This document shows positions 1,973-43,532 of a DNA stretch of 64,000 nt, piece after piece. Position 1 is the first letter of the stretch. Every line of letters starts with the position of its first letter. This stretch comes from Candidatus Poseidoniales archaeon (GTDB lineage Archaea; Thermoplasmatota; Poseidoniia; Poseidoniales; Poseidoniaceae). The translations under genes were made by a program, and so were the position numbers. The stretch lies in assembly GCA_003602415.1 (NCBI GenBank), contig QQSK01000013.1:10152-74151 (forward strand). Direction: 5' to 3'. Under the pieces are notes generated by a model. The model was given only the letters and a program-made list of their open reading frames with translations. It ran no database searches and had not been told where the DNA came from.

Positions 1973-3718
1973 ATGGATGGCTTTGTAGATCTAGATGGCG
2001 CAATCAAAGCCGAGGCCAAAAGTCGTGTAGATCGTATCGAGAAGTTGGCAGGGCTATCTGCATTGATTATGCTGTCTGCAGCAACTTGGCTTGCTTGGCC
2101 GTCTTTAGAATCAGCGATTAGCGGTGGTTCTATGACTTCTGATTTGAAGTATGCAATGGTCATCATTGCATGGGGAGTTTTTGTTCAAGATCTTGGAGTA
2201 ATGGACAAAAAAGCAAGGTCAAGAATAGGTACAGTGGCTACGATTTCTTGGTTACCAATTGTCATTATATCTGTTGATTATCTTGAAGGAAATGTTTCTC
2301 AAATCATTGGTATGCTGATTTTGTTAGGCGTATCTTCATCGCTTTTCGCAACTAGCAGGTCGATTCTGCAAGGCGATGTATCAGTGATGAAATATCGAGG
2401 CTTAATGGGAGGCTTGGGTCTAATTCTATCGATTTCTCTACTTACAACCACTACTATTGATGACAATTCATCATATATTCAGGTCGGCTTTTGTGCCATA
2501 GGTGCCTTATTGATTCTAATCGATTGGTTTGGTAGTGATGATATGAGGCCATTGAGAAAAGAGTTCGATGGAAGATTAAACTCCTTGGAAAGTCGTCTTT
2601 TAATTTTGAAGAGCCAAGGCTCAGCAGTCGATCAAGCAGCTAGCCTGGTTATGACTGCTAGAGAAGAAGGTCATAGAGACCCTGAATGGGGGATGCGTCT
2701 ACTCGATGAAGCCGATGAAGATATTGAGCGTTCACTATCTCTGGCAGGAGATGTTGAAGACATCAAGAAGGACTCTTTGGAATCTGTAGAGAAAGCAGAG
2801 TCCATTGCTCCAGTAGCCAAGCGCCCTAGAAAGGCGTGGGACATGGGTCAGAGAGAAGTTGAACTTGGGAGCCTTAGAGAAGGTGAAGCGCTTTTCAGAC
2901 AAGCCAAAAAGCGTGCAAATGAAGTTATTCAGTGGTGGCAACTAGCGGAAGAAGCCATCAGAGAAGGTGCCGCTTTGTTAGCAAAATCTCCTCATGCCCA
3001 AAGTAATCTAGAGGAAATTTTGGCAGATGCTCGAAAGAAATTATCTGCTGAAAAGCCAAAGAAAGCTTACGAGTTTGCAATGGTTATTCCAGAGCAACTA
3101 TCTGCTTCTGACGATGCTCTGGTTATTGCAGAATCAGCAGTCAAAGAAGCTGCTAGACAATTAAAATCAGCTGATGGCATAAACAAAGAATTGCTAGAAG
3201 AAAGACTCGAACATGCTGAGGAGGCATTAGAAAAAGGAAATTCAGCCCAAGCAAAGGGGCTTTCTGATGGAATCGTTAGAGAGATTCTCGCTGAAAGAGA
3301 AGCTATGGACGATGTTAGACGGGCTCTAAGACAGAAAGTGCATTTGGTTTCACGTTGGGCAGAGAGGGACGATGTTTCGGATTGGAATGCCAGATTATTA
3401 GAGATCGAAGAATCGGCGGATTCCTTGGAATGGACTCATGCAGCAACATTACTCGAGCGATTAACAACTGATTTGGATGCTGAAGGTAAGGCTAGTGATG
3501 AAGCAAATGAATTACTAGATTATGTCTTAGAGGAATGGGATATTCTCAGAAATCAATGTGATGCTAGCGGAATTAAAGTTGATGATGAAGATAGACGTTC
3601 CACTGAAGAAGCAATAGCATTGGCTAGTGAATCGCATAAGGCAGGAAGAATCGATGAATCTCTCGAATCTCTTGGCTTAGCAGATGGTTTCATGGAGAAA
3701 CTAAGGCGAAGAGTATGA
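1973..3718 (+). CDS. Polytopic membrane protein of about 6 TM helices, with a roughly 380-aa alpha-helical and coiled-coil C-terminal domain
   Basis: Six hydrophobic segments lie in the first 200 aa. The remainder is E/A/R/L/K-rich with heptad-like periodicity. No enzymatic motif was recognised. Confidence 0.45.
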   Translation: MDGFVDLDGAIKAEAKSRVDRIEKLAGLSALIMLSAATWLAWPSLESAISGGSMTSDLKYAMVIIAWGVFVQDLGVMDKKARSRIGTVATISWLPIVIISVDYLEGNVSQIIGMLILLGVSSSLFATSRSILQGDVSVMKYRGLMGGLGLILSISLLTTTTIDDNSSYIQVGFCAIGALLILIDWFGSDDMRPLRKEFDGRLNSLESRLLILKSQGSAVDQAASLVMTAREEGHRDPEWGMRLLDEADEDIERSLSLAGDVEDIKKDSLESVEKAESIAPVAKRPRKAWDMGQREVELGSLREGEALFRQAKKRANEVIQWWQLAEEAIREGAALLAKSPHAQSNLEEILADARKKLSAEKPKKAYEFAMVIPEQLSASDDALVIAESAVKEAARQLKSADGINKELLEERLEHAEEALEKGNSAQAKGLSDGIVREILAEREAMDDVRRALRQKVHLVSRWAERDDVSDWNARLLEIEESADSLEWTHAATLLERLTTDLDAEGKASDEANELLDYVLEEWDILRNQCDASGIKVDDEDRRSTEEAIALASESHKAGRIDESLESLGLADGFMEKLRRRV

Positions 3719-4678
3719 TTACATCATTCGCTCTTTCATTTCACAAGCCTTACAGACACTTCCGCTACACATCTGTCCACACTGTGGACAATTGATTGGT
3801 TTGATGGAATTCAAACTACTTCCAGCCATCTGTTGTAATCTTTTGACATCGTCTGCCATTCGCAGAAGCCCATGCCTTGTCCCTGGGACATCTGCTTCCA
3901 TCATGGCAATGGTTTCTCTATGCCTGAACCTTAGAGCTCCTTCGCCGTGAGGGCACTCTTCATGGTGGATGGGTAATCCTTTGTGTAATGCGTAAAGGTG
4001 AATCTCTTGTTCAGGGACCCATCGAAGTGGAACAATCCTTGGCGCCATGCCTTCCAACGGAGTATTTGTGTGAGGGGCTAATCTCAGTGTTCTTTCGAGA
4101 TCACCATTTTGCATATTCATCATTATGGTTTGAGCCATATCGTCAAGGTTGTGGCCTAGTGCGATAACATCAGCACCTACACGCGCTGCAAGATGATTGA
4201 TGCCTTGTCGTCTAAAAACTCCACAATAGGAGCAGGGCGCTTTCTTATCTCCTGTCTCGATAATTTTCTCTACCACTTCATCCATTTCTTTGAAACCCAA
4301 ATCTGGGTAAGAAACAGTTTCGAATTGAACACCAAGACTTTCACACAACTCTCTCGCACATTCTAGCGATGGTGGACGATATCCTTCAATGCCTTCATCT
4401 ACACAACCTCCAATGATTGTTACATCTCTTCGCTTTCCTAGATTTTCATGAATTCTTTCTAGGAGTACGGCAGAATCTTTACCTCCAGAAATAGCCACAA
4501 GAATGGTTGTATTCTCTCCTTTGCGGAGCACTAATTGTTCCCGCAAAGCCTTGGAAACTTTCTTTCTAACACTCTCAGCAAGATGTGCTCCACACATCAT
4601 ACGGCCTGAATAAACCTGGTGATGAATCGCCGGATTGCGACATTTGTCACAACTTGGGATATCAAACAGGTCGGCCAT
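3719..4678 (-). CDS. tRNA 2-thiolation PP-loop ATPase of the NcsA/TtuA family
   Basis: It carries the PP-loop motif SGGKDS. CxxC...CxxC zinc-finger pairs flank it at the N-terminus (CDKCRNPA...CGAHL) and the C-terminus (CPQCGQMCSGSVCKAC). I placed the start at MADLFD. The ORF track's longer start at 4762 would add 28 non-conserved residues. Confidence 0.6.
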   Translation of the reverse strand: MADLFDIPSCDKCRNPAIHHQVYSGRMMCGAHLAESVRKKVSKALREQLVLRKGENTTILVAISGGKDSAVLLERIHENLGKRRDVTIIGGCVDEGIEGYRPPSLECARELCESLGVQFETVSYPDLGFKEMDEVVEKIIETGDKKAPCSYCGVFRRQGINHLAARVGADVIALGHNLDDMAQTIMMNMQNGDLERTLRLAPHTNTPLEGMAPRIVPLRWVPEQEIHLYALHKGLPIHHEECPHGEGALRFRHRETIAMMEADVPGTRHGLLRMADDVKRLQQMAGSSLNSIKPINCPQCGQMCSGSVCKACEMKERMM

Positions 4679-4816
4679 GTTTGGTCCAAGAGGTTCTAGC
4701 CTTGATGTGAACGGTTGAAAAAAGCAATTGAAAAATTGATTTTTCAATTGGAATACGAGCATGATAATCCCCGTCCATCAAAAATTTAGTTGGCAAAATC
4801 AAAACACTCCACAAAT

Positions 4817-4885: not shown

Positions 4886-5227
4886 ATGATGCAACGCATT
4901 CTGGCCGGATTCTCAGCCCTACCAGGAGCTGACCAAGCATACATCATTTCTCGTAGAGATGGCTTGGTTGCTTCAGTTGGAAAGAGAGGTCGTGCACCGA
5001 TGGTTGAACATGCCACCCAAATAATCCAAGCGATGGAAAGACTTGGACAAAACAAAGCCGTTGGAAGAGGGTTGGAGTTTTGGACAGAAGGAGAGGGAAT
5101 GCTTCTAGTAACTCGATTGAGCGAAGATGCAAGCCTGATAGTTTCTGGTAAGAAGGGTGGCAGGATAGCCAGGTGGCGACACGCCGTAGAATGCGATGTT
5201 GAAATGCTAAACTCGTTGATGAGGTGA
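4886..5227 (+). CDS. Roadblock/LC7 (MglB-like) domain protein
   Basis: It is 113 aa and carries the roadblock signature ...AYIISRRDGLVASVG... . Its stop overlaps the start of the next ORF by 4 nt (ATGA), indicating operon coupling. Confidence 0.55.
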   Translation: MMQRILAGFSALPGADQAYIISRRDGLVASVGKRGRAPMVEHATQIIQAMERLGQNKAVGRGLEFWTEGEGMLLVTRLSEDASLIVSGKKGGRIARWRHAVECDVEMLNSLMR

Positions 5228-8200
5228 CGGACATGTTCGATCTACCATATGGAATGCTAATTGATAACGAAATTGATGTCAGTGATGGCTCAATCATGCC
5301 ATTTGAACACGGTTCAATATCTACGTATCTTGGACGTAGGTCTACTGCGAGCGGACATAGAATCGTCAGAGCGGGCAGAGTCGTAGGTTGGGTTGCTGAA
5401 CCTGCTAAAGGCAAAGTTTTGCTTTGTGGTCTAGCTGCTAAGCAAAGACTCGAGGAATTAGAATCTGATTCACATCGCTTAACTGCTAGAGCATGGACTC
5501 AATCGTCATTAGGCTCCGTTGCTGAGATTATTCCTGAAGCATTTGAGCACGCTGCAGACTTGCGAGGACTGATTGGTTCTGGCGATTCATTGGAGCGTTT
5601 ACTTTCTCGAGATCTATCTGCTGTCTTGGCGAATCTGGTTGTTAGGCCGGAGGTACGTGGAGGGATTGCGGTTGATTCTGGAATGTTAATCGACGATGCA
5701 GGAGACCTACCCTCTAGTGCAGAATCCTTAGCGGCACAGGTTGGAGAAACCTTGGCTGGAAGAAAAGCGATGGCTAGCGACTTAGGATTATCCGGTGCAG
5801 GCCACTGGACACTACACACAGACAATGGAGCATTATTGTTGGCGGAAGCCGGCGATGTCGCACTAGCAATTTGGACAGAATCAGATGTCGACCACGGTCG
5901 ACTGATTAGCCAAATCGCTGCTATGATGGACGGACAAATCGATGCAATGGGGTCTAGAGGTGAAGCACTTACCGATGGCCATGTAGTTAGAGAAGGAAGA
6001 GGCGGAACCGATGCAATCATTTCCATGCTAACCACCGCTGTAGAAGAAGGATTGACCGGCCATTTGACGGCCGGCAAATCCTCCAAAGCAATTCGTGTTG
6101 CACTGGTTAAGGGTGTACCTGTGGCCATGCAAGCGCCTGGAAAAACAAAGATTGTCGAGGCGGTAAACTCACTTTGTGAATCTCGACGCGTTCTATCATT
6201 GCATAGACTGCCTGTTGGAACAATTCTTGGAACAGAATCAGGTAATGTTCCCGATTTCAATTTAGAAACCTTCTGTGAGGAATTATCTACAACAAGAACT
6301 CGTTCTGAATCCCGCCAAACTCTAATCAGACAAACTATGAATCAGATATATGGTTTTGAAATAGGTCTACAAAAACTCAAGAAAGAGCGTACTAGGTTCG
6401 AATTCGCAATTTCAGTAGCAACTCCTTCAACAGGTTTGACTACCGTGGATACATCCACAGGAATTGATGATGGATTAAGAAGAAAATTAGAGAAATCTGA
6501 AATTCAACTCTCAGATGCGAATCAAGAGATTGCTTCACTTCGTGTTGCCCTTGATTCAGCACAGAAAGCAGAAACTGCAGCTAAAGTCAATGCTAACGAA
6601 GCCAATAGGCATACTTCAGATATTCAAGATAAAATTGCAGCGTATAACAAAACAATCGACCAGTTACAACTCGATTTATCCGCAGCACAATCCAGTTCCG
6701 AGAATGCAGAGGCTCGTAGTGATAGGTTGTCAAAGAGAGTGAACGAGTTAGAGCACCAACTCAGTGAAAGAGCGGTTGAATTGGCTAGAATTCTTGGAGA
6801 TAGTAAAGCGAGTAATGAATTGTCTTCCAAGATAGAAGAAATGGCATCCAAGGAAGCAGCATTATCCAGTGATATCGATTCACATTCTGCGACCTTGTCG
6901 AGTATTCGTTCAAGGATAGATGATGATCAACGCCGTCAGAGAATGATAGAAGAACAGGTAGAAGCTGCTAGAGACAAACATCGTCGTGCTCAAGGAGAAT
7001 TATCAGAATTGGAATCCAAGATCAATGACTCTCAATTGCGTCTAAAGCAAATTGAAGCGGAATCAAGAGTTGCTCGAGAGCGAACTCAAGAAGACCGAAT
7101 TAGGCTGAACGAACAAGAAAACCGTGCTGCTAACATCCAATCCGAGATGCGTGAATTAATGGATGAAAGAAGGCAAGTTCTGAAAGAACTAGGTGATTTA
7201 GGTGCTAGAAGAGGACAAGCTGAAGCTGAATTGTCGAACTTACTAGACCAAGCAGAAGCATTAGCATTCGCTCATGAAGAAGCGCTATCCGACATCAAAG
7301 AGGCAGAATTACTTCGCGCAAAATTATCTGAAGAACCCCTTGCTCAAGCATTGTTAGAAGATGGTGCTCAATTTGATGGACTAGGGCCAGTATTAGAACG
7401 CTTAGAACATGCTAGAACACTAGGATACTCGGTGTCATTGCTTGACCGTGCGGTAGAAAGAGCATTACAGGTCATTCAAGGATGCGTTGACCACGTTGCA
7501 ACAACGCCTAGACACCTATTATCGACAGAAGTAATGTCGTTATTGGAGAGACAGGTCCCACAAACTGCAGGAGCAGTTCGTGGATTAGCAAGATGGTCGG
7601 TTCAACAAAGACTCGAACATCAATTGGGTGAAACAGTAACTAATCTGGTTCTAGATTTAGAAAATCTTCTCGAAGATTACGACAGATCGATTACTATGCT
7701 TAGAAGAATCAGAAATGTTCTCGAGCAATTAGAGAAACTCGGCGCTCCTCCTGAACAGGTTCAGGCTTTGATGAACAATACAAGAAGACCTGAGTCTTTG
7801 CCGGTTCTTGCTCGCGAGACTCGTACTCTGATTCAGAAGGCTCTGGATGACATCCACCTAGAAGCAGACATGAGAGATGCAGGCTCTGCAGTCAAATTAG
7901 AAGCGACAACCAGCGCCCTCGAAGAACTTCTTACCCAATTAGATGCAAGTGGCTTTGTCAAGGGTGAAGTTCGTGGTGCGCTTTGGGATTTCAAGCGAGA
8001 AGGGATTCTACCTTTCGAGCGTGACTCTGTTCCTGCTGGAGAAAGAGAACCGGTCAATGATGCTGCAATAGAGCAAATGAAAGGCGAATTAATCGACGAG
8101 GAAGTTGCTGTTGCAGTTGAAGTTAGTGAAATTACTGAGGAATGGGAAGAATTGTCGACACCAGTGGACCAGGATGATAGTGAATCAGTATCTGAGGATG

Positions 8201-8358
8201 TATCGATCTCTCATAGTGATGAAAGAGCATCTCTAGAAGAAGAATTAGCTAGATTGGATGCTCGTTGGGAACGTCGAACCGACCCTGAAGAAATAACAGA
8301 ACTTTCAGATTCAACTCTTGACGAACTTGAAGATTCTCTAGATGGGATAGATCTCTGA
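5224..8358 (+). CDS. Large cytoplasmic protein with N-terminal roadblock/LC7-like domain(s), a long SMC-like coiled coil and an acidic C-terminus
   Basis: Residues ~130-240 (RGGIAVDSGMLIDDAGD...GALLLAEAGDVALAIWTESD) fit the roadblock fold. Residues ~420-720 have heptad periodicity and are rich in E/R/Q/L/A. No Walker A motif is present. The C-terminal 90 aa are strongly acidic and include EEWEEL. Confidence 0.5.
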   Translation: MTDMFDLPYGMLIDNEIDVSDGSIMPFEHGSISTYLGRRSTASGHRIVRAGRVVGWVAEPAKGKVLLCGLAAKQRLEELESDSHRLTARAWTQSSLGSVAEIIPEAFEHAADLRGLIGSGDSLERLLSRDLSAVLANLVVRPEVRGGIAVDSGMLIDDAGDLPSSAESLAAQVGETLAGRKAMASDLGLSGAGHWTLHTDNGALLLAEAGDVALAIWTESDVDHGRLISQIAAMMDGQIDAMGSRGEALTDGHVVREGRGGTDAIISMLTTAVEEGLTGHLTAGKSSKAIRVALVKGVPVAMQAPGKTKIVEAVNSLCESRRVLSLHRLPVGTILGTESGNVPDFNLETFCEELSTTRTRSESRQTLIRQTMNQIYGFEIGLQKLKKERTRFEFAISVATPSTGLTTVDTSTGIDDGLRRKLEKSEIQLSDANQEIASLRVALDSAQKAETAAKVNANEANRHTSDIQDKIAAYNKTIDQLQLDLSAAQSSSENAEARSDRLSKRVNELEHQLSERAVELARILGDSKASNELSSKIEEMASKEAALSSDIDSHSATLSSIRSRIDDDQRRQRMIEEQVEAARDKHRRAQGELSELESKINDSQLRLKQIEAESRVARERTQEDRIRLNEQENRAANIQSEMRELMDERRQVLKELGDLGARRGQAEAELSNLLDQAEALAFAHEEALSDIKEAELLRAKLSEEPLAQALLEDGAQFDGLGPVLERLEHARTLGYSVSLLDRAVERALQVIQGCVDHVATTPRHLLSTEVMSLLERQVPQTAGAVRGLARWSVQQRLEHQLGETVTNLVLDLENLLEDYDRSITMLRRIRNVLEQLEKLGAPPEQVQALMNNTRRPESLPVLARETRTLIQKALDDIHLEADMRDAGSAVKLEATTSALEELLTQLDASGFVKGEVRGALWDFKREGILPFERDSVPAGEREPVNDAAIEQMKGELIDEEVAVAVEVSEITEEWEELSTPVDQDDSESVSEDVSISHSDERASLEEELARLDARWERRTDPEEITELSDSTLDELEDSLDGIDL

Positions 8359-8367
8359 GGTGAATAT

Positions 8368-8568
8368 ATGAGTTCAGTCTATCCTTTGTGGATTGAAAAG
8401 ATGATTTTCTTAGTTTTGGTAGCATCATCAGTATACGCTGGTATCGAATTGCAAAATCATCTCACAGGAGCAATGCTTTGGTTGTCATGGGTATGTGGAT
8501 TGCCTTTGGTAGTTCTAGTCACTACTGAAGGAATTGGACGCATAGTCCAAAAAATCAACACAAGATAA
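8368..8568 (+). CDS. Small 2-TM membrane protein (hypothetical)
   Basis: It is 66 aa with two hydrophobic helices. It starts 10 nt after the preceding gene on the same strand. Confidence 0.3.
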   Translation: MSSVYPLWIEKMIFLVLVASSVYAGIELQNHLTGAMLWLSWVCGLPLVVLVTTEGIGRIVQKINTR

Positions 8569-9726: not shown

Positions 9727-10980
9727 TCAATATCCTCTCACCTGTAGCAGGGCCTGTGATAGGTCCATGTCTGGCATCCAATCGATGACTTGACTTCCAA
9801 ATCCTGCTAGGGATGTCAGTCTGTTTTGTCTTTCAAGTTTCAAAACCTCGTAAGACATTCTTGGGATTCTACTGACCAGTCTCTCGAAGTCAATAGATGA
9901 TGGAGACAGTACAGTAACTTCGTGACCTCTTCCAACTAAATCCCTAATCGCTGAAGGAACAGTTCCATCTCCTTCACACGATGAGATGACGAATACAGGG
10001 CTTCCACGACTGAACCTTGCGGCTAAACTGTTGGTTACAGCTTGTAAAGGCATAGTTCCTCTTGGAGCAACCCCTGCAAGAGAAGATAAGATCTTGAAAT
10101 ACTGCTTATCTCCAGTATCAGGCGGTAAGAATGACAATTTTTCATCATAAATTGTTAGAGAGACCGAATCACGCCGCTTGATGAAGAAAGACGCGAGACT
10201 CGCTGCAGCCACAGTACCCATCTCTAACGGGTTCTTGAGAACTGTACCAATTCTTGCAATATCTCGACTATCTAGAATGATGTACAAATCAGTTACAGCA
10301 TCTCTACACTTCTCGTTAATCATCAAGTCCCCAGTTCTAGCAAATGCCTTCCAATTGATGTTCTTGAACGGGTCTCCTGGCACATATTCTCTTAGCGAAT
10401 AGAATTCTGTTCCAGGTCCAGGTGTTCTCAATGTGGTCGCACCAGTGTACATCTTAGCAGTTCTAGAACGGATGAACGCTTCTTCAACGTCACGAATCTG
10501 CGGGAAAATGATGATGTCGGAATGATGGTCAACATACATTTCATCAACAGAGAGATTGAATGTATTCCTATACCTAAGAGAAACAGGCCCTATCGAGTAA
10601 TGACCTCTTAGAGGACAGCGTAAGACATAGCGGATTCTAGCACTTTCTCCTGGCTTGAGATTGAGCCTCATTTGGTTGAGACCACTCCTCAACTTCATTT
10701 CGTGAGGAACGTTGTCATAAACTTCCAATTGCTGAGTTTTCCTTCTACTTCTATTGGTAACTAACAATTCAACGTAGAGGTCATCTCCCTTGTACAGGTT
10801 ATCTGCAGATAGAGTCCTCTGTACTTCGACATCACCATGCCCACTGACCCATGAGTTTACTACAATGAATGCGATAAATGCCAGACCTAGAATCATCATC
10901 TGATGGTTTGAAATCATCATACCTATGAGGATTAGAGCAATTCCTCCAGTGAATGTAAATGCTGCTTTACGTGTCCACAT
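9727..10980 (-). CDS. DUF58 family protein (vWA-like, associated with MoxR/Bat operons)
   Basis: It carries the DUF58 hallmark REYVPGDPFKNINWKAFARTGDLMINE (R-Y-xGD...I-W...AR). Two N-terminal TM helices are present. Confidence 0.65.
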   Translation of the reverse strand: MWTRKAAFTFTGGIALILIGMMISNHQMMILGLAFIAFIVVNSWVSGHGDVEVQRTLSADNLYKGDDLYVELLVTNRSRRKTQQLEVYDNVPHEMKLRSGLNQMRLNLKPGESARIRYVLRCPLRGHYSIGPVSLRYRNTFNLSVDEMYVDHHSDIIIFPQIRDVEEAFIRSRTAKMYTGATTLRTPGPGTEFYSLREYVPGDPFKNINWKAFARTGDLMINEKCRDAVTDLYIILDSRDIARIGTVLKNPLEMGTVAAASLASFFIKRRDSVSLTIYDEKLSFLPPDTGDKQYFKILSSLAGVAPRGTMPLQAVTNSLAARFSRGSPVFVISSCEGDGTVPSAIRDLVGRGHEVTVLSPSSIDFERLVSRIPRMSYEVLKLERQNRLTSLAGFGSQVIDWMPDMDLSQALLQVRGY

Positions 10981-23828: not shown

Positions 23829-26800
23829 TCACCTAAGGTCTTGCAAACTTTCTCTGTAAGTCTCCCATTGTTCTTCTTCCCATTCTTCAGGCATGGGTCC
23901 ATCAAGCCAGTCTAGGAATTCTTGGAGAGTCCAACCTTCTGGTATTCGTTCATCCTTTTGTGGAGTCTCATCTTCGGTTTCCCAAGTTTCAACGACTTCA
24001 TCATCGCCTCGATTTCTAAAGTATAATGTTGAGGAAATAATCACTACAACTAATATTATACCAAATATCATCAAAGGAAGTGACATCGATTCTGAAGATT
24101 CCTTCACTTCATCTTGAACTATGTCACAATCAGTTGAGCATTCTTCAACTCCTTCAACAATAATTAATCCGGTGTAGTTCACTTGGTTACCACTCCAATC
24201 CTCACATTCAACAATCGCTGAAATATTGCCTTCAAGGCTGGTAGGAAGCAACCATGAAGCACTCCAAATGCCAGTGCCATCAAGGTCGAGAACTTCACTA
24301 TTAGTTGTACTGAAAACCGAAGTATTACCACTGATTAAGTTGAGTTGACAAGTAGCATCGATGCCATCTGCATCCTCCATTTCAACCATTATTTCCAACA
24401 GCCCTTCATGGGATATGTTACTAGAGTGTGTGACTTCAATTTCAGGAGGAGAATGCATAAATTCGAAATCCAAGTTCGAAATTGACATTATTTCATCAAT
24501 ATCCACAACTCTCAACTGTAGACTTCCTTCTCCAGGAACGAATGAAGAATCTAATTGTATTCTAAAGTAGAAAGAATCAGTTTGTCCAGCAACATCATTT
24601 CCACATTCTGTCGGGGATTGGATTGGAGCTGTAACAATCCAGCCTAATTGCTCTAAACTCGCAGTAGTCTCTAGAATTGGTCTAGAAGAACGAATTCTTA
24701 CAACTGCGTCTGCAGTTTGTCCAAACATTAGTTCATCAATTGTATTGCCGTTTTGACACAAATCGATTGAAAGGATCTCTGGAGGGCTGAGTAAAATTGG
24801 TGCTTGAAGTTGAGAAGAATTACTTGCACCATTGGCGCCTGTAACAGCCACTTGGATTACCAAATCTCCGCTGTCTATGCTTTGAGAGGAGAATAATGGA
24901 ATAACTGCAATTCCATTTTCGAGTTCTATTGGTAGGGAATATTCACTCTGTCCTGGCCACTTTATGGTTAGGTCTCCATATGTACCTTCAATAGAATCGT
25001 CATTATCGATGACCTCAATTCTGAGATTTTCATCCCCGCCAGCAAGAATATTCTGAACAGGATTCATCGAAGCATCAACTATTGACAGGTTTACAATAGG
25101 AGCCTGGTCTGCAACTTGAATAGTTCTTCTAGTCAGGAAATTACCTTCAGAATCTCTTAATTCAATATCAAAAGAATCCAAACTTGAGCCGGGAGGTAAG
25201 TTGAATGACGCAATGTAACAATGTTGGTCTGAACTACTTCCTGTAATGTAAGTCAATCCATCAATCATGCCACGCGATGCACTGAATTGTGGCATCTGTG
25301 TCGCTAGGTCATGATCAGGGTCAAGCACACAGGCTTTGAGTGTCAAGATATGTCCTCGAATTACTCCTTTAACCGGTGATGAGGTAAGAACCGATGCACC
25401 GCCCCAGTCGTTTGCATCTACTCCTGAGATGTGAGTTCCAAACCAGAATGCTGGCGCATCTCGAATCGCAGCTATTGCTAGAGATTCTTGAATAGTAGAT
25501 AGATTGGATTCATCTGTTACATTAACTCTCAAATCCAATACTCCAAGCGGTATATCTGAAGGTAAGTCGATTGTCGTCCACCAAATCATGCCATCTTGAC
25601 TACCGGTATTCTGCCATGTCCACTCTGTACTATTATTGCCTTGAGTAATTCTCCATGCAATAGTAGCCGAAACCACACCACTATCATCAGAAGCATCGAT
25701 GCTACAAACGAATCTATCACCTCTACTATACTGGCTAGAATCACAGAAGATGTCATTTATTGTTGGTGCAATGTTTACCCACAGGGTAATGTCAAGCACA
25801 TTGTTATCGATATTTCTTTCAGGATTTAATAGTGAACTAGCTTCCCATTTGATCACTAGGTTGTTCCATCCTTCTCGTGATGAATTAAGTTGTACGGTAA
25901 TGATTTGCCGACTGCCATTTTGTGAACCGTCAGGCAAAGTTAACGATTGATTTACCAACACTACACTGCCCAATTTATCCAGCACTTTCAATTGACCAAC
26001 AGCATCGCCAGGCCCAATGTTTTGTAATGCAATTTCCATTTGGAAATCTTGGTCAATTGAAACATTATCCAAAATTCTGACATCAATAATTTCCACATCA
26101 TGAACAATGTCAGCATAAGGACTCATTTTTGGATCACCCACCACTACTCCCATCCAACTGGTGTACGTATTTGCAGCAGCATAGGATTCAGCGAGATTGA
26201 ATCCACTGGAATATGAAGAAAGCAATACGCTTGGAGATGATACTGCGGTCAGGTATGGTTCATACACATAGCCCTTGATTCCGCTGGCCCCATCTTCCAA
26301 GATATCCGCTACTAATGATTGACCGTATGTTGTGCCCCAATTGAAAGAACGAGCCCCTGTGCTAACCGCAGTTTCAACAATTGATCCATTGACCCACTCC
26401 ATGTGTGGCCTAATCACTCTAAGTACAGTTGAATCAACAAATAATGAACCTCCTGTTGAAGTAGGAACGATATCTAATGAAACTCTAATCTTCATCGATG
26501 TTGCATTTTCATGTGGTCTAAATCTCATGGTTTCTGAGTTCCATGCAGCAGTGAAATCTTGATTTGAGGATGTGTTAGTAAACAGAGTGGAACCATTTGA
26601 ATCAAGAGATGTAACTTGGATATTGTATTCTCCAAACACGTCTCCAGCTCTTTTACCATATGTGTAAACCACCCAAGCATGGTCGGTGAAGTTTTCATCG
26701 ATACTGTGAATTGTTTCTAGATAAGCAACACCTTGACCATTACCAGAATATGCAGTGCAATTATTGACTATATTTCTGTTCAAGACAGTGACTGAACTAT

Positions 26801-28946
26801 TGTTCAGTGCAGTATCCCAAATCATTACATTGTCGATTTTACCTTCGAAAAATGAGTTGCCAGCTCTATTTACTCCCAATTTGTACAAATCAAAATTGTT
26901 TACTGAACCGTTTGGATAAGTGTTGGTATTGACAAGTACTCCATCCATGTATTGTCTTGTTTGACCATTATCGAATACAGTGACTAAGTGACTCCATTTT
27001 TGGTTTATTACGTCACCAAATGATTTGGTCTGATTATTGTGTAATTTCCATTCACCACCCGAAATCATGTGCTGGAATGAATTGTTTGACCCTGCATTAT
27101 CGTCTATTGCAAATGTCGAAGCATAGGTGGATTGATTGGTGGTATTTGCCCATACCCATTGACTGATTGAGAAGTTACCAAGCCAGTCGTCGACATTCAC
27201 TTTCGCATAATCATTAGAACCATCAAACCAAAGACAATTTCCATCAATACAGGTTTGCCAGTTGCTCGAGTTCATTCCATAAAGAGTGAAATTTGAACCG
27301 TTAGCAACACTATCATTGGTTTGAGAACCAACCCCTTCTTCAAAATCCCACTGATGAATCAGGCTTTCAGATTGAGGAACATAATCTCCATGAACATAGA
27401 AGGCTGATGCAGGTATTGTTACTTTGGAAGTATTGGGGCCTTGCCAAGAAAAGCGTAATCCATGAGGCCCTCCTCCTTGGAAAAATTCGATTCTGAAATC
27501 ATGATGCCCTTCGGTTAGGTTCAAAGTAACAGAATACTCTCTCATTCCATGCATTCCGTAATTCTGAATTGCGCTTACCCCGTTAATCCATAACTCGGAT
27601 CCATCATCTGTGTTGAGATAAAATGTCCAATTTCCACTTTCTGGTATGTCTACCAGGCCACTAAATCGAGCTCCCCAATTGTGCTTGAAACGATCATCTA
27701 ATCCGGGGTATGGATTGTTTGAAGAGGAATAAGCCAGAGTGTTTTCTATTCTGGTATGGTCAGGTTCTCTATCAATCAAATCTGGCATTGATGCAGAATT
27801 GAAACTAATTCCTTCATTGTCGAAATACTCAGCATAAATACCAGATAACAAATAACCGGTTTCTTGGCTACACTCAGATGAAATCTCAGCTTCGAAAGCC
27901 CCATTACCGCCTTGTTTGGTCTGAGTTTGGTATGACCAATTGAATATGTCACCTGGTGATACAGTCGGTGAAGATATGTTCCAATATCTAGAACCGCTTG
28001 ACCATGCAGAATCGAGTGTATCAAAACCTCCATTTGAAAGGTAATTCTTGTTCCAATTACCGTCATTACTTCCCCATGATGCATATCCAATCACATTGGA
28101 GATATTGGTTATGAATTCGGTCTCTTCATCGAAATAAACTGGCAGATTCATTGAACCATTAAGCGTAGAATTAGCCACGTACAAGTCATCATTCCAGAAT
28201 TTGTAACCAGAGCCATTTCGATTTGTTGCTAAATCTAGAACATGAGTCCCTCTTGAACCGTATGAATTGTTGGCCTTCTCGATTAACTCCAAAGCGGTAT
28301 CTACAGTATATCCTGTCAATCTAGTGACAAGGAAGAATCCATATTCTTCCCGAGTAAATTCCTTCATCTGTTTACCCGCCAATGGCCCATAATCATGATT
28401 GCTCCACCAATTACCGCCAATATCGGCATCATAACTACCTCCTGCCAATGATATTTCTTGATCGAATGATGCCTTATCATTACCCCCATTTACTCGCAGT
28501 GGTATGCCTTTTGTAGTCACTAGATAGTTGATGTCTGTACCATTGTAAGAGGACAACATTGCTCTAAATGGCTCCAAAAAATATGTATCGAATTGATTTC
28601 TGTTTATTGTTTCTCCAGTAGGATTAGAAGAATTATTGAAGATGAAAACACGTTCAGCACTAATGTTCCTTGCTGTTACGAAGGCCCAACCAATCGTTCT
28701 ACTCGCCTCTGATTGGTTATTGATTAGAACGGCGACATCGCTGTAATCCACTGCCGTTGATAGGTTGAAACCACCAGGTACTGCTACAGTTTGCAAGGGA
28801 GTCTCATTCCAGATGTCAGTATCTATGCTGAATCCCTCAAACAATGAGTCCTCAAGGCTAACTTCCTCAACATCAGAGTTTGGAATCTGAACGCTTCCAA
28901 ACAGGAAAAGCGCGACCAGAATTAGCGCCTTCCGTTGGGAGGACAT
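23829..28946 (-). CDS. Giant secreted surface protein (1705 aa) with a LamG/ConA-like lectin domain, a C-terminal TM anchor and an acidic Trp-rich cytoplasmic tail
   Basis: It has an N-terminal signal peptide (ALILVALFLFGSVQ). A LamG-like segment reads DGSNDYAKVNVDDWLGNFSISQWVWANT...FEGKIDNVMIW. Beta-rich Asn/Ser/Thr-rich repeats follow. The C-terminus has a TM helix LPLMIFGIILVVVIISSTLYF and a tail rich in EEWEEEQWE. Confidence 0.6.
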   Translation of the reverse strand: MSSQRKALILVALFLFGSVQIPNSDVEEVSLEDSLFEGFSIDTDIWNETPLQTVAVPGGFNLSTAVDYSDVAVLINNQSEASRTIGWAFVTARNISAERVFIFNNSSNPTGETINRNQFDTYFLEPFRAMLSSYNGTDINYLVTTKGIPLRVNGGNDKASFDQEISLAGGSYDADIGGNWWSNHDYGPLAGKQMKEFTREEYGFFLVTRLTGYTVDTALELIEKANNSYGSRGTHVLDLATNRNGSGYKFWNDDLYVANSTLNGSMNLPVYFDEETEFITNISNVIGYASWGSNDGNWNKNYLSNGGFDTLDSAWSSGSRYWNISSPTVSPGDIFNWSYQTQTKQGGNGAFEAEISSECSQETGYLLSGIYAEYFDNEGISFNSASMPDLIDREPDHTRIENTLAYSSSNNPYPGLDDRFKHNWGARFSGLVDIPESGNWTFYLNTDDGSELWINGVSAIQNYGMHGMREYSVTLNLTEGHHDFRIEFFQGGGPHGLRFSWQGPNTSKVTIPASAFYVHGDYVPQSESLIHQWDFEEGVGSQTNDSVANGSNFTLYGMNSSNWQTCIDGNCLWFDGSNDYAKVNVDDWLGNFSISQWVWANTTNQSTYASTFAIDDNAGSNNSFQHMISGGEWKLHNNQTKSFGDVINQKWSHLVTVFDNGQTRQYMDGVLVNTNTYPNGSVNNFDLYKLGVNRAGNSFFEGKIDNVMIWDTALNNSSVTVLNRNIVNNCTAYSGNGQGVAYLETIHSIDENFTDHAWVVYTYGKRAGDVFGEYNIQVTSLDSNGSTLFTNTSSNQDFTAAWNSETMRFRPHENATSMKIRVSLDIVPTSTGGSLFVDSTVLRVIRPHMEWVNGSIVETAVSTGARSFNWGTTYGQSLVADILEDGASGIKGYVYEPYLTAVSSPSVLLSSYSSGFNLAESYAAANTYTSWMGVVVGDPKMSPYADIVHDVEIIDVRILDNVSIDQDFQMEIALQNIGPGDAVGQLKVLDKLGSVVLVNQSLTLPDGSQNGSRQIITVQLNSSREGWNNLVIKWEASSLLNPERNIDNNVLDITLWVNIAPTINDIFCDSSQYSRGDRFVCSIDASDDSGVVSATIAWRITQGNNSTEWTWQNTGSQDGMIWWTTIDLPSDIPLGVLDLRVNVTDESNLSTIQESLAIAAIRDAPAFWFGTHISGVDANDWGGASVLTSSPVKGVIRGHILTLKACVLDPDHDLATQMPQFSASRGMIDGLTYITGSSSDQHCYIASFNLPPGSSLDSFDIELRDSEGNFLTRRTIQVADQAPIVNLSIVDASMNPVQNILAGGDENLRIEVIDNDDSIEGTYGDLTIKWPGQSEYSLPIELENGIAVIPLFSSQSIDSGDLVIQVAVTGANGASNSSQLQAPILLSPPEILSIDLCQNGNTIDELMFGQTADAVVRIRSSRPILETTASLEQLGWIVTAPIQSPTECGNDVAGQTDSFYFRIQLDSSFVPGEGSLQLRVVDIDEIMSISNLDFEFMHSPPEIEVTHSSNISHEGLLEIMVEMEDADGIDATCQLNLISGNTSVFSTTNSEVLDLDGTGIWSASWLLPTSLEGNISAIVECEDWSGNQVNYTGLIIVEGVEECSTDCDIVQDEVKESSESMSLPLMIFGIILVVVIISSTLYFRNRGDDEVVETWETEDETPQKDERIPEGWTLQEFLDWLDGPMPEEWEEEQWETYRESLQDLR

Positions 28947-29063
28947 ATGTCTTGGGAGACATTATTACACAAAGTCACTTCGATTAGAAAATCTATTGAA
29001 AAATATGCATTTTTGGCAATTTTCGTCAATGTGTATATGAAGGACGGCCCCCCCTGCCGAAAC

Positions 29064-29690
29064 ATGGTCGAGTTGTATATGGCGCGAACTTGTCGCTGGG
29101 GTATACTCCGAGTCATTGGTGGGGACTTGCATTTGCAAGAAGCCGATGTCGTGATTACCCCTGCTAATAATCGCCTATCTGGGCGAGAAGGAATAGACGC
29201 TCAAATTCACAAAGCGGCTGGTGAAGAACTGAGGCAGTTTTGTCGAGATGTTAGCGTAGAGCAACGAAAATCCAACCTCCCTCCATGTCCAGTTACCACT
29301 AACGTGGTTTCCAAACCATACAACCTTGAGAACAAATTCAAGCACATCATTCACGTTGTCAGCCCAGATTGTAGAAGACCAAATCAGGATGAATCCAGAA
29401 GACAATTGCTACCTGAAGCATACTTCAACCTATTTGCAACACTCAAGGATATGAAAGATGTGAGCGTAGTTATGGCTCCTCCTCTCTCAATGGGAGTATT
29501 CGCTTATCCACACAGAGAAGGGGCTAGACTGACTCTTGAAACATTACTTGGAATTATGGATGGTGAAGAAGATCCTGGAATTAAGGAATACAACATTGTT
29601 GTAAAAGAAAGAAATTTCATCAAAAATATGAGAACGGTTTACAGAGAATCTGAAGACCAACTTCCAGGTACTGATACAACAATGGTTTGA
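29064..29690 (+). CDS. Macro domain protein (ADP-ribose binding or hydrolase)
   Basis: ILRVIGGDLHLQEADVVITPANNRLSGREGIDAQIHKAAG matches the Macro GD(I/L)T...D..V.AAN..L..G.GV..AI..AAG motif. The ORF track's start at 28935 overlaps the divergent gene start, so an internal Met at 29064 or 29079 is preferred. Confidence 0.6.
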   Translation: MVELYMARTCRWGILRVIGGDLHLQEADVVITPANNRLSGREGIDAQIHKAAGEELRQFCRDVSVEQRKSNLPPCPVTTNVVSKPYNLENKFKHIIHVVSPDCRRPNQDESRRQLLPEAYFNLFATLKDMKDVSVVMAPPLSMGVFAYPHREGARLTLETLLGIMDGEEDPGIKEYNIVVKERNFIKNMRTVYRESEDQLPGTDTTMV

Positions 29691-29699
29691 GGTGTTTGA

Positions 29700-30548
29700 A
29701 TGGTCGATCTGCCAAATATGGTGGCTTCGGCAATAGACAATGAACGCTCAGGCTTTTCCGTAGCAGTGTTGTTATCAAACAATTCTAGAACCGCTAAAAA
29801 GATCAGAGAAATTCTTCCTTCCAAACTTAGAATGGTAACTTTGACATCATCTACAAAGGTGTCTGATGCATTGAAAGATTCAGGAATCGAAACTAAACTG
29901 TTGGAGGATTCACTTTCTTCTCAAGGATTGTCAGTCCTTACTAATCTTCACGACATTATCTTGCAAGGTTTGGGTGAGGGGAGCTTCAAATCCAACGATC
30001 GAATTATTGCAATTTTAGCTGAACCAATGAATGGAATTATTGTAATCGAAGCCAGTTCCTTGACCTCCAATCGATTAGCAATCATGGCAAATGAGCACGA
30101 TATCGACATTGAGGTTTTGGCCCGCATGATGGAATTAGCACGACATATCGGGGGAAGGGGAAGAGAAGGACATGCTGTTGGTGCATTGTTTGCAATAGGC
30201 TCGGTTCCAAAATTACGACGCTACTCTACAGCACTAGTCCTGAATCCTTTCAAAGGGCACTCAGATTCGAAGAAAAGTGTAACCTCGCTAAACAATCACG
30301 AAACTTTGGCCGAATTTGCTTGGTTAGATGGGGCGATTTTATTCAACTCCAAAGGTATTGCAAGCGATGCAGGTAGATATGTGCAAGTTCCATCAGGAAT
30401 CAATCCTAAACCAGGAGAAGGGGGTCGCCATCTTGCAGCAAGAGCGATTAGCCAATTAGCAGAAGCTATCGCAATCTGTGTTTCATCTAGTGGAGTTATT
30501 ACCTTGTATTCCAATGGCAAAGAAAGATATCGCGTCAGGCTCTCCTGA
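29700..30548 (+). CDS. dacZ: Diadenylate cyclase (c-di-AMP synthase), archaeal DacZ type
   Basis: The C-terminal DAC domain carries LDGAILFN (the DGA motif) and GGRHLAARAIS (the RHR-type motif). The N-terminal regulatory domain and the 282-aa length fit DacZ. Confidence 0.6.
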   Translation: MVDLPNMVASAIDNERSGFSVAVLLSNNSRTAKKIREILPSKLRMVTLTSSTKVSDALKDSGIETKLLEDSLSSQGLSVLTNLHDIILQGLGEGSFKSNDRIIAILAEPMNGIIVIEASSLTSNRLAIMANEHDIDIEVLARMMELARHIGGRGREGHAVGALFAIGSVPKLRRYSTALVLNPFKGHSDSKKSVTSLNNHETLAEFAWLDGAILFNSKGIASDAGRYVQVPSGINPKPGEGGRHLAARAISQLAEAIAICVSSSGVITLYSNGKERYRVRLS

Positions 30549-35439: not shown

Positions 35440-38400
35440 GTGGGCCGAAGGCCCATCAGGTGCAAAGGTGATGCAAAAGTGAAAAAATCAGTATTCTTAG
35501 TCACAGTTTTCGTCCTATCTGTTCTTTCGCCAATAGCAATGGCGGAGGTTACTGAGACCCAATTCCAAGGTGGTTCAACGTCATACACTCACTCCTTTTC
35601 AGGCACAGGTAGCGGCTTTGCGGGTAACCTAACATTCCCTTACGGAGCCGAAGTTACAGCAGCATCCTTCGAGGTTACAGGACATCCTTCTTCTACCACA
35701 TGGGGTAATCTTTCAACCAATTCTGATTTTGGTGGCGCAGGTAGCGGAACATGGGTTGGAACACCTCCTGGTTTCGCTTCTGGAAGCAGATCAAATTTGG
35801 AAGTAGGTAACGACCAAGTCAAGTTACGTGGTAACCCTACCAACAACTTGAATGGAATCGATAGGTCAGCAGAAGCAACCTCAACTGAAACAATTAACAA
35901 TACCGGAGGATTTGCCTCAAATGGCGATCAAGGATTCATTGGAGCGACTAGTAAGCAGACATCTTTCTCTCTAACTTCATCCACCTCAAATTACCGAGGA
36001 TTCATTATTGCACATGGAGATGAATATCATTCAGCATCATACTCGGGCTCATCTATGTACAGTACTCCTGTAGTGAAAAGATACAATTCAACGACTGGAG
36101 CATTCATAGGTTCAGCAAGTATTTCATCCGGCTCATGTTCTTATTCAACACCATTGTACTCAACTTATGATGCAACCAGTGATGGAGAGGGTAATGTCTG
36201 GACTGTTTCCTACAGTTACAGAGTTTTGTTCAAGTGGTCTGTTTCACCAACGACTGGAGCATGGACTTGCCTTGGCAGTTACACATACTCTAGCAGTTAC
36301 TACCCCGTAGGAGTTGATGTGGACGAAGATTCAGGTCGTCTGTTCTTGTTGATGTATCAATCATCATATCCAAATTACAACAGATATCTGTACGAGGTTA
36401 ACCCTAGTTCTCCTTCATCGATTAATGGAAGTTGGCTATTAGGTTCAAGAGAACAAATGGGAACAACTAGTACTACAGCAACCGGTCTTGTAGTAGATCT
36501 TCCTAGAATTATGACCAATGAATACTACAGTTCCTATGGATACCACAATTATTTCACAATGAATGGAATTTTCGTTGAGAAAATGGGTAAATTACAACTC
36601 AGCGAGGGCGGCCATTATGGAATGGATCAATTGGGAGATAACACAATTGGCTCCCAATGTCATTACAACGCTTATTGTTCTACTGCGAATAGGAACAAGA
36701 TTCTCAGAGAAGGCACAGGTGCGATTTACGATTATCGCACACCAACCTCAACATCTTCAGTTGTTACCAGCACTACAACCTCTCTTACGCGCCAAATCAC
36801 TGAAATTACCGTGTCTGGGATTGTAGGTTTCATTCCTGACAATACTAGTATTGAACTTGAAGTTTCAAATGATGGAGGAACAACTTGGATGAGCGGTCTG
36901 TTCAATCAGAAATTAATTTTCTCAACAGCCGGCTCTAACGTGTTATGGAAAGCTTACCTCAATGGAACAAGCTCAGAAACTCCTGTTCTAGACTTTGTAG
37001 TTCTAACATATTCAACGAGTTATACCACAAGTGGATATTTCCAATTGCGCTCGAACTATTATTCAGGTAACGCACCTGTAGCGATAACAGCATGGTGGAA
37101 TGCAACAACCCCTGCAGGCACAGGTCTGCAAGTTGAGTTCCAAGACAGTTCGACTAAAACTTTCCAATACAGTGGCGATTCAAAGACAGTAACTATGACC
37201 AGTGGTTACATCTACATTTACGTAAGATATACCTCAACAGGTTCTGATACTCCAGTTCTGGATGATTTGAACATAGCATTGCATTCTGATGCTCCAGAAC
37301 AGGTTGGAATTGACATTGGAGGAGTTAACGGATGGACTAGCCAAGGTGTCTTGCTTGGAACTACAACTCGTGGAGGCATTCAGTTCGTTAATGCATTCAA
37401 TTCACAAATTCCTGATGAGGGCAGTGGCAGTGTATCTATTCCAGTTAACTTGACTTCTCAAACATCGGGTATTGTTGTTCTAGAACGTTTCAGTGTCACT
37501 TACAAGATTAACACCGTAAACCTTGATATTTCAATTCCTGATGGTGAAATTTTGCATGAAAGAAATGAGCCATATGAGGTCGTAACTCGACATATTGTTG
37601 GAGATGGAGCCAATAATTACATTCAGTCAGCAACTCTCTCTTTCCTCGCCTCACCAGCATCTAGTGCACCTACATTAGAATGGCAAGATGGAGATATATT
37701 CCCATCCCCTAACGATCCTGATGATTGGGTCGACATTGATCAATCCTCTTGGTCAGTTTTGAATAATGGAATTTTAGAAATCCATTGGTTATTCTATGTG
37801 ACCTCTAATTTCCCAGACCAGCAAAATGTTCGTTTCTCAACCAACTGTTTGGACACATCTGGAAGTAACGGCTACTCGCCTTCTCCATTGTCTAGCGATA
37901 CTGGATTACGTGTCAACAATTCCTTCGGACTTGGTTGGATGAATATTCGAGATAATGATGGAGAAGTTACATCAAACGATGTTGAGGATGGCAGTTGGGT
38001 TGCTGCAGGAGAAACTTTGCACTTCCAAGGTGCAATGTGGTTTGCAGATTCAACCGATGCTCCAAAGGATAATGCATTCGACGTCAGGATTTCCCAGAAT
38101 GGATATGTCGACGCTGCCTGGAGAGATACTTCCAATGTTAATGGTTCATTCTTTATCTCAATTCAGATGCCAGATATCGATGTAGAGAGTGGACTTTCAT
38201 ATGAAGTTCAGACTTATAATGAAAGAGATTCAACCATGGTTTTGGATTCCAATTCAGATTGGTTCAGGACCTACAAGGTAGATGCAACAGCACCTGAAGC
38301 ATTGGACACATACCCTGAAAATGATGCATATGAAGCAGCAGATACTGACCAGAAAATCAGTATTAGTATTTCTGATAACGTTGGCGACCCTACTGAATTA

Positions 38401-40476: not shown

Positions 40477-40517
40477 GTCCTCGAATCGTTGCCCTCTTGA
40501 ACCAGTGGCTTCGCCCT

Positions 40518-43500: not shown

Positions 43501-43532
43501 AATATGCCAGAACTCGTAGGTTCTGGGGTTAA
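40518..43532 (+). CDS. lhr: Lhr-like SF2 DEAD/DEAH-box helicase
   Basis: It has Walker A VVAPTGSGKT, motif II DEVH, and SAT and helicase C motifs. The C-terminal domain has a Cys4 zinc ribbon (CCLRCTS...CLKCGG). The track's start at 40473 overlaps the upstream gene, so Met 40518 is preferred. Confidence 0.75.
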   Translation: MPMAEGVFSKLEQSLQKALEERNWSPTPVQQATQDDIAAGLDRLVVAPTGSGKTMAAVLPLLDRCLREKWTGMSILYITPLRALNRDVDRRLEEITSAVGLRLGLRHGDTPQSERTKHVRNPPNVMITTPETFQLMFTGSKLRELLRTVEAVVIDEVHEMADGERGWQLSVGLSRLEIFKGSKVQKIGLSATVGNPVQVSRWLSKEAKPIDAVAPRTTELSVDAIIQSPEDEIGSLELAISPRAHATLRGLADIVAKKSPCLIFVNSRNSAETVSQRLQAIAPDLSIGVHHGSLAKETRTKMEDDLRNGSLQGLVCTSSLELGIDVGSVNHIVQIRSPRSVDRMLQRVGRADHRLGGIGSGHLLSWECDDIFESAVIARKAVSGEIEPVEWRDMPLSVAANQIVMMVHSHGALPIDLVTESISGALQFENWNRSDTIAIGNVLADRWVIRCVEDTSTVPWYRWPHDVWQELVRVSKKALPEQPKLAFDEEPSEELARLTFEVPAKFAKGWVSRSGKTRQWVSHHLSMIPDKQSYRVRDAVTRQSLGNVDEAFVLSLNDGGEDQDGSQRRFVMAGRTWIVVDADPEQNELLVAPVSDQGHAPQWVGELPPTPADVAREAGRLRRLFAIDLGLISDEEIEELDPAELLKGHSELDDYPLNGEAKGILADVITTHFNSAKMIPSERLITIEDRDEALVINSCQGNRINEALGHYLLAMASTRSGKWGRLIVEPCRISLQVGGVRPAELIEWLCETPPEALEGVLSVTLPNSREVRWRFAQIAKIFGILRHGVDPRKINIQALLKKYRGTPVMQEVLSKLFHERMDIVGATDVMRAIQSGLIGLEVTATGPLGISSRSEKDLLLPNFNNQQVKARLEGRLMNERAVLCCLRCTSIRRFRVARYPEINDSKKCLKCGGQMLACAREGLEKQLIDWVKSDDEKVRDRMMKNAQSVANRGMDAILALMGRGIGEATCQRLMRKVQRGDKDGLLEAIHIAEIEYARTRRFWG

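Follow-up and report, generated by a model that had tools for sequence, protein, structure and literature searches.

MglB is a roadblock-fold protein that acts as the GTPase-activating protein of the Ras-like GTPase MglA, and the PATAN/DUF4388 domain is a known genomic associate of MglB. In Myxococcus, the proteins FrzS and AglZ, which function in MglA-dependent polarity, carry a long coiled coil joined to a regulatory domain. Studies of other members have described roadblock and longin proteins as dimeric or heteromeric platforms (PMC10933270, PMC9481161). CvnB is a single domain of approximately 130 amino acids (aa), whose four-gene operon also encodes a histidine kinase and a GTPase (PMC4316618). 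Across 1,611 surveyed genomes, a coupled module was defined as a roadblock gene having a Ras-like GTPase gene at most four genes away; 328 of the 749 MglB homologues (~44%) were orphans, none of which had been experimentally characterised as of 2014 (PMC4316618). In this study, we analysed a stretch of 64,000 nucleotides (nt) from a Candidatus Poseidoniales archaeon (assembly GCA_003602415.1, contig QQSK01000013.1, positions 10,152 to 74,151 of the forward strand), referred to as the window, which carries a three-gene operon for a small roadblock protein, a giant roadblock/coiled-coil protein and a small protein with two transmembrane segments (two-TM protein). The fold family is well known, whereas the partnership of a small roadblock with a giant coiled-coil protein appears to be undescribed. 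The initial annotation had called the fusion of a roadblock to a long coiled coil an undescribed architecture; in agreement with this, nothing relevant was found in the literature on this architecture or on roadblock/GTPase biology in Poseidoniales.

The small protein is closest in structure to MglB. Its model superposes on MglB of M. xanthus and T. thermophilus with a template modelling score (TM-score) of ~0.83, the C-terminal helix included, and like MglB it is a single domain of ~110–130 aa that would be expected to form a dimer. However, its sequence identity is only 14–18%, and the protein does not reach the Pfam Robl_LC7 cut-off; MglB pairs with a GTPase, whereas the small protein has no MglA-type GTPase within four genes or in the 64 kb; and, unlike MglB, it is coupled to a giant coiled-coil protein. 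In profile searches, the roadblock domain of the large protein was matched best by CvnB (3leq) and the stand-alone roadblocks 7f8m, 7yh1 and 9jue. Unlike CvnB, this domain is embedded in a multidomain protein of ~1040 aa, with no kinase or GTPase nearby. The operon would follow a logic similar to that of Ragulator (LAMTOR1-5 and the C-terminal roadblock domains of the Rag proteins), in which several roadblock modules sit on a membrane-anchored scaffold, and LAMTOR2, 3 and 4 were among the structural and profile matches to the operon roadblocks. In contrast to Ragulator, no Rag-type GTPase lies nearby, the proposed anchor is the two-TM protein and not a lipidated LAMTOR1, and Ragulator has nothing corresponding to the long coiled coil or to two large domains of the large protein; the roadblock fold is the only homology implied. 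FrzS and AglZ are bacterial and have receiver domains, not a roadblock as in the large protein, and no sequence relationship to them was detected.

The Small Roadblock Protein

Gene 1 (4886–5227, + strand) encodes a protein of 113 aa. An AlphaFold2 (AF2) model, built on an alignment from a profile of 24 orthologues, had a predicted local distance difference test score (pLDDT) of 87.6 and a predicted TM-score of 0.83. Its topology, a-b-b-a-b-b-b-a, is exactly that which defines the roadblock fold, alpha-beta-beta-alpha-beta-beta-beta(-alpha). Foldseek comparison of the model with the PDB gave 118 matches at E ≤ 1e-3, and the best 50 of these 118 were all roadblock, MglB, MglC or LAMTOR chains, led by M. 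xanthus MglB, Asgard roadblocks, T. thermophilus MglB and LAMTOR2/3 (top TM-score 0.83, E 4e-7, probability 1.00). At the sequence level the protein is nearly silent. Pfam and NCBIfam returned nothing even at E ≤ 1, PF03259 (Robl_LC7) did not match the protein of the window at E ≤ 10, and below-threshold Robl_LC7 matches were obtained for 3 of the 24 orthologues, with a best E of 0.0052. The 24-orthologue profile reached a solved Robl_LC7 protein at E 0.37 only. One orthologue is named 'Roadblock/LC7/MglB family' in a JGI record. On the predicted structure, gene 1 encodes a stand-alone protein of the roadblock/MglB fold, as had first been annotated. It is an ordinary, though very divergent, orphan roadblock.

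The Large Roadblock/Coiled-Coil Protein

Residues of the large protein are numbered from GTG 5224 throughout. A family profile of residues 100–245 was built from 17 diverse members, the divergent ones having come from an exhaustive hidden Markov model (HMM) search of 1.84 billion representatives together with 38 related genome loci. Searched against the PDB, this profile matched CvnB5 (3leq, a Streptomyces conservon MglB homologue) over its full length at E 1.8e-5, with profile positions 35–135 aligned to chain residues 8–112. The lower-ranked matches were 7yh1, 7f8m, Rv3364c, LAMTOR4 and 7f8f, with Asgard roadblocks among them. At the same position, Pfam Robl_LC7 matched four divergent members below threshold, the best being that of the P0100 lineage (E 6e-4, model positions 4–89 of 91), and it also matched 2 of 11 close orthologues. 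A roadblock was thus recognised in both proteins, by predicted structure and Foldseek for the small one and by family profile against the PDB for the large one.

Judged by these profiles, the large protein holds exactly one detectable roadblock domain, which is internal, at residues ~125–235 (5596–5928, +). The initial annotation had the protein begin with one or more roadblocks; one domain stands, whereas the N-terminal placement and a second copy do not. Additional copies were sought by hhalign in residues 1–100, 245–350 and 720–945, compared both with the small-protein family and with the roadblock segment of the large protein itself, and gained no support (P 0.16–0.5). The roadblock segment and the small-protein family aligned collinearly (131–231 against 2–111) with P 0.085, so the direct similarity of the two profiles is not significant alone.

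The roadblock domain is preceded by an N-terminal domain (residues 4–120; 5233–5583, +) for which Pfam and PDB searches found no relative and over which AF2 was unreliable. It is followed by a middle alpha/beta domain (residues ~246–345; 5959–6258, +) that had no PDB or Pfam match, with an AF2 pLDDT of only 60–70. A resemblance of this middle segment to PATAN/DUF4388 (PF14332) was considered but not supported: Pfam gave no match for the 11 + 15 segment sequences at E ≤ 10 or for 9 full-length members at E ≤ 1, and the PDB showed no relative.

The long coiled coil that had been annotated was recovered at residues ~418–700 (6475–7323, +). It is a heptad stretch of ~250–280 aa with 0–1 Pro/Gly per 56 aa and a raised heptad a/d score, and it has two conserved breaks, ILGDSKAS (522–530) and ELGDLGARRG (655–664). 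Membership of a PADLOC defence system was considered and rejected; the matches were only to LmuB, DruC and PD-T4-10_B, at E 1e-4 to 3e-3, and all lay within the coiled coil.

The slowest-evolving region is the conserved C-terminal helical domain (residues ~701–945; 7324–8058, +), recognised by its identity across divergent members, which averages 58% compared with 34–38% for the other domains. It has the motifs EEPLAQALL, LLDRAVER and VRGL.RWSVQQRLE and no solved relative in the PDB. When the N-terminal module and the C-terminal domain were sought in different architectures or lineages, this family alone was recovered. An acidic linker follows (residues ~946–1030; 8059–8313, +), which varies in length across the lineages (62–130 aa) and contains 16–35% D/E against 3–10% K/R. 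In the window the last 104 aa contain 37 D/E against 7 K/R, which bears out the annotated acidic tail. The protein ends in the peptide L-x-x-L-E-x-x-L-x-x-[ILF]-[DE]-[LIFMY]-COOH (8314–8355, +), in which the Leu, Leu, Glu and Leu positions are 89–98% conserved across all lineages. A conserved terminal peptide behind a variable linker is a design typical of tethered docking motifs, and we infer that this peptide is one. No transmembrane segment was seen in the large protein, and the product of gene 2 is a soluble protein of ~1040 aa.

Operon Organisation and Conservation

The three open reading frames (ORFs) lie where they were first placed, at 4886–5227, 5224–8358 and 8368–8568. The longest ORF of the large gene begins with GTG (5224–8358, +; 1044 aa, from the ORF list). 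Its true start is probably ATG 5233 (5233–8358, +; 1041 aa), because the N-terminus MFDLP is conserved in orthologues, the three codons before it are often non-start there (GDK-, GEK-, CDI-), and a Shine-Dalgarno-like GAGGTGA motif, read from the sequence, lies 5 nt before this ATG, where it overlaps the TGA stop of gene 1 (5221–5227, +). With this start, genes 1 and 2 would be 5 nt apart and would not overlap by 4 nt, so the overlap given in the initial annotation is not retained. Genes 2 and 3 are 9 nt apart, and a second GAGGTGA, also read from the sequence, stands 4 nt before ATG 8368 and overlaps the TGA stop of the large gene (8357–8363, +). Two identical motifs overlapping the preceding stops fit a co-translated three-gene operon. 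Gene 1 itself (ATG 4886) has no motif of the GAGGTGA type, and its transcript may accordingly be leaderless or have a short leader.

Gene 3 (8368–8568, +) encodes 66 aa with two hydrophobic segments, in keeping with the two-TM protein first described, and the corresponding proteins of other lineages have 73–86 aa. The motifs YP(L/I)W(I/L)ER and AE.IGR..Q are conserved across lineages. They are kept even in the P0112 lineage, the most divergent, where an FG-GAP-repeat gene intervenes between the large and the two-TM genes. This inserted gene (L040:11221–12567, also in L041 and L042) encodes 448 aa with terminal hydrophobic segments, and its start overlaps the end of the large gene.

The operon is flanked on one side by a divergently transcribed NcsA/TtuA-like tRNA 2-thiolation gene (3719–4762), and on the other by a convergent block that encodes a 382-aa polytopic membrane protein, DUF58, DUF4350, a PRC-barrel protein and CDC48. 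A total of 39 genome loci were retrieved using the small protein, and the loci of related genomes cover ±10 kb around the operon. The conserved order is NcsA(-), small, large, two-TM, membrane(-), DUF58(-). Whether the small and large genes stay neighbours in related genomes had been put forward for checking; they are adjacent in all 36 loci that reach far enough to show both, and in 4 of the 5 divergent lineages whose upstream region could be examined. The three genes occur together not only in 38 genome loci but also in divergent lineages. Intact large ORFs of 1042–1062 aa are present in 33 loci. The divergent members have 1020–1089 aa with the same architecture and arrangement, an upstream gene of 100–114 aa, alignable with the small protein, and a downstream two-TM gene of 73–86 aa. 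No member of the large-protein family was found outside Poseidoniales among the 1.84 billion representatives of the exhaustive HMM search, and on this evidence the three-gene operon is specific to Poseidoniales (Marine Group II archaea).

One of the loci, L001 (NZFX01000057.1), was deposited as 'MAG: Phycisphaerae bacterium isolate MED703' and carries this archaeal locus in unchanged gene order, with 82–99% protein identity; almost certainly, a Poseidoniales contig was here assigned to the wrong bin.

Proposed Scaffold and Alternative Explanations

We believe that the operon may encode a roadblock-based, membrane-linked coiled-coil scaffold with a positioning or organising role, and we give this explanation a probability of roughly 40%. 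The large protein would dimerise via its coiled coil, and its roadblock domain would pair or stack with the small roadblock protein, a step suggested only indirectly, by the tight coupling of the two genes in the operon. The result would be a two-fold roadblock platform like that of MglB, MglB/MglC or Ragulator. The C-terminal domain, the tethered terminal peptide or both would dock onto a membrane partner, either the two-TM protein or a different one. The platform could then recruit or regulate a partner encoded elsewhere, which by analogy with the superfamily would most probably be a nucleotide-dependent switch.

Several observations weigh against this scaffold, and the first concerns its client. 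A Walker-A scan of the 64 kb in all six frames gave 4 matches, two in CDC48, one in another large ATPase of ~760 aa and the last a pseudo-motif of the large protein. By this motif scan the window encodes no small P-loop protein, Pfam scans of 29 neighbouring proteins found no GTPase, and no other candidate client was found within the 64 kb; the absence of a nearby GTPase was thus confirmed. None was called in the related loci, and the operon has no Ras-like GTPase within four genes, which is what marks a coupled MglA/MglB module. The absence of a neighbouring GTPase is unremarkable in itself, because ~44% of MglB homologues are orphans. The match in the large protein, GHLTAGKS (6058–6081, residues 279–286), was rejected as a false P-loop: orthologues have Q, S or G in place of its Lys, and neither DxxG nor NKxD motifs are present.

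The other points on this side concern the two proteins themselves. In the P0100 lineage (L043–45) the small gene is a 38-codon remnant (MMQRMVASFC...stop), and the large and two-TM genes are intact; the small partner would therefore be dispensable there, and the roadblock pairing would not be obligatory. The remnant (L043:7691–8000, L044:2589–2898, L045:2296–2605) is identical across the three sources. The small protein also diverges much faster than the large one (17–33% against 34–58% identity). The AF2 model of residues 1–400 of the large protein was poor (pLDDT 42.5), and sequence profiles were therefore used for this protein. Finally, over half of the large protein is without a detectable relative, and its real activity may therefore lie there.

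The loss of the small gene with the large gene kept, the absence of a GTPase in the 64 kb, the long conserved coiled coil with its conserved breaks and the many roadblock orphans without known function (PMC4316618) would also suit a GTPase-independent structural element. In this case, the large protein would form a filament or lattice, like the bacterial coiled-coil-rich cytoskeletal proteins, and the roadblock modules would serve as oligomerisation or capping domains only, with nothing regulated. We consider such an element plausible but less likely than the scaffold: the best-conserved part of the large protein is the globular C-terminal domain with the docking-type peptide and not the coiled coil, all characterised roadblock dimers are binding platforms (PMC10933270, PMC9481161), and there is no evidence of polymerisation.

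The operon may also be speculated to form a previously unrecognised, lineage-specific cell-organising system of these archaea, the most abundant planktonic Euryarchaeota in the sea, in which a roadblock platform would sit at the end of a membrane-anchored coiled coil of ~40 nm and its client would be a non-canonical nucleoside triphosphatase (NTPase), or the system would be GTPase-free. We regard this as unlikely.

The neighbouring block offers a different role, in which the operon would be a regulator or adaptor of the 382-aa membrane protein, DUF58, DUF4350, the PRC-barrel protein and the AAA+ ATPase CDC48, and the roadblock platform would regulate the NTPase machinery of the block and not a small GTPase. 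The block adjoins the operon in every lineage examined, the most divergent included. However, gene order is collinear well beyond it, with NcsA upstream and an aldehyde dehydrogenase beyond CDC48 also conserved, so the adjacency is weak evidence. In L028, ~4.6 kb are inserted between the operon and the block, and the two are convergent and therefore not co-transcribed. The roadblock superfamily was first proposed as general NTPase regulators (Koonin and Aravind 2000, as given in PMC4316618), and the acidic peptide conserved at the C-terminus could act as an adaptor motif, but Pfam scans gave no recognised CDC48-adaptor domain. An adaptor of this block appears improbable to us.

An SMC/Rad50-like chromosome organiser, or an anti-phage defence with an SMC-like component (Lamassu/Wadjet type), is effectively refuted by the sequence, since the weak matches to SMC_prok_B, Rad50 and LmuB are restricted to the coiled coil (residues ~403–723) at 46 bits against a cut-off of 567 (NCBIfam), no ABC ATPase head motifs are present, the lone Walker-A-like string is not conserved, and the gene, in all Poseidoniales genomes sampled, keeps a fixed, syntenic core position rather than lying in a variable island.

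Neighbouring Genes

Two genes upstream of the operon were considered as members of the module and rejected. The initial annotation had pointed to the membrane/coiled-coil protein at 1973–3718 as a neighbour just upstream, but it is not a stable one: the 581-aa protein encoded there and the adjoining 632-aa protein are inverted or displaced in L023, L033, L034, L036 and L037, L028 and L032 lack them within 10 kb, and other genes occupy the place in divergent lineages. The 632-aa protein (48–1946, +) is family-less, very acidic and Asn/Ser-rich with a single C-terminal transmembrane anchor, and looks like a surface protein. The 581-aa protein (1973–3718, +) is also family-less and has several transmembrane segments and a long acidic helical region. 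The two genes stay together, but where they lie and which way they point with respect to the roadblock operon differs among genomes.

On the other side, the DUF58 protein (9727–10980, -; 417 aa) has hydrophobic N-terminal segments. It is 95–99% identical across Poseidoniaceae genomes, compared with only 60–90% for the neighbouring proteins, and 83–88% identical in Poseidonia-type loci, and it is by far the best-conserved gene of the neighbourhood. Elsewhere in the window, there are very large ORFs at 23829–28946 (-, 1705 aa), 35440–40476 (+, 1678 aa) and 40473–43532 (+, 1019 aa). A DisA-type diadenylate cyclase (DAC) protein (29700–30548, +) adjoins a macro-domain protein (28935–29690, +), and this pair hints at cyclic di-AMP signalling in this archaeon.

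Conclusions

Roadblock proteins have an ancient role as platforms for nucleotide switches. The operon gives an orphan roadblock fixed, conserved partners, a giant roadblock/coiled-coil protein and a two-TM protein, and it is found throughout Poseidoniales, which are abundant, uncultured marine archaea. Three conserved domains of the large protein without detectable relatives are brought to light, and a membrane-tethered roadblock scaffold is a concrete hypothesis for the orphan roadblock. If the system is GTPase-free, it would widen the view of what roadblock platforms do; if a distant GTPase partner exists, GTPase/roadblock signalling would be extended to a major euryarchaeal lineage that lacks a description of it. 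If the lineage-specific cell-organising system were true, the roadblock-scaffold principle of eukaryotic Ragulator and dynein would also have been elaborated independently, outside the Asgard archaea.

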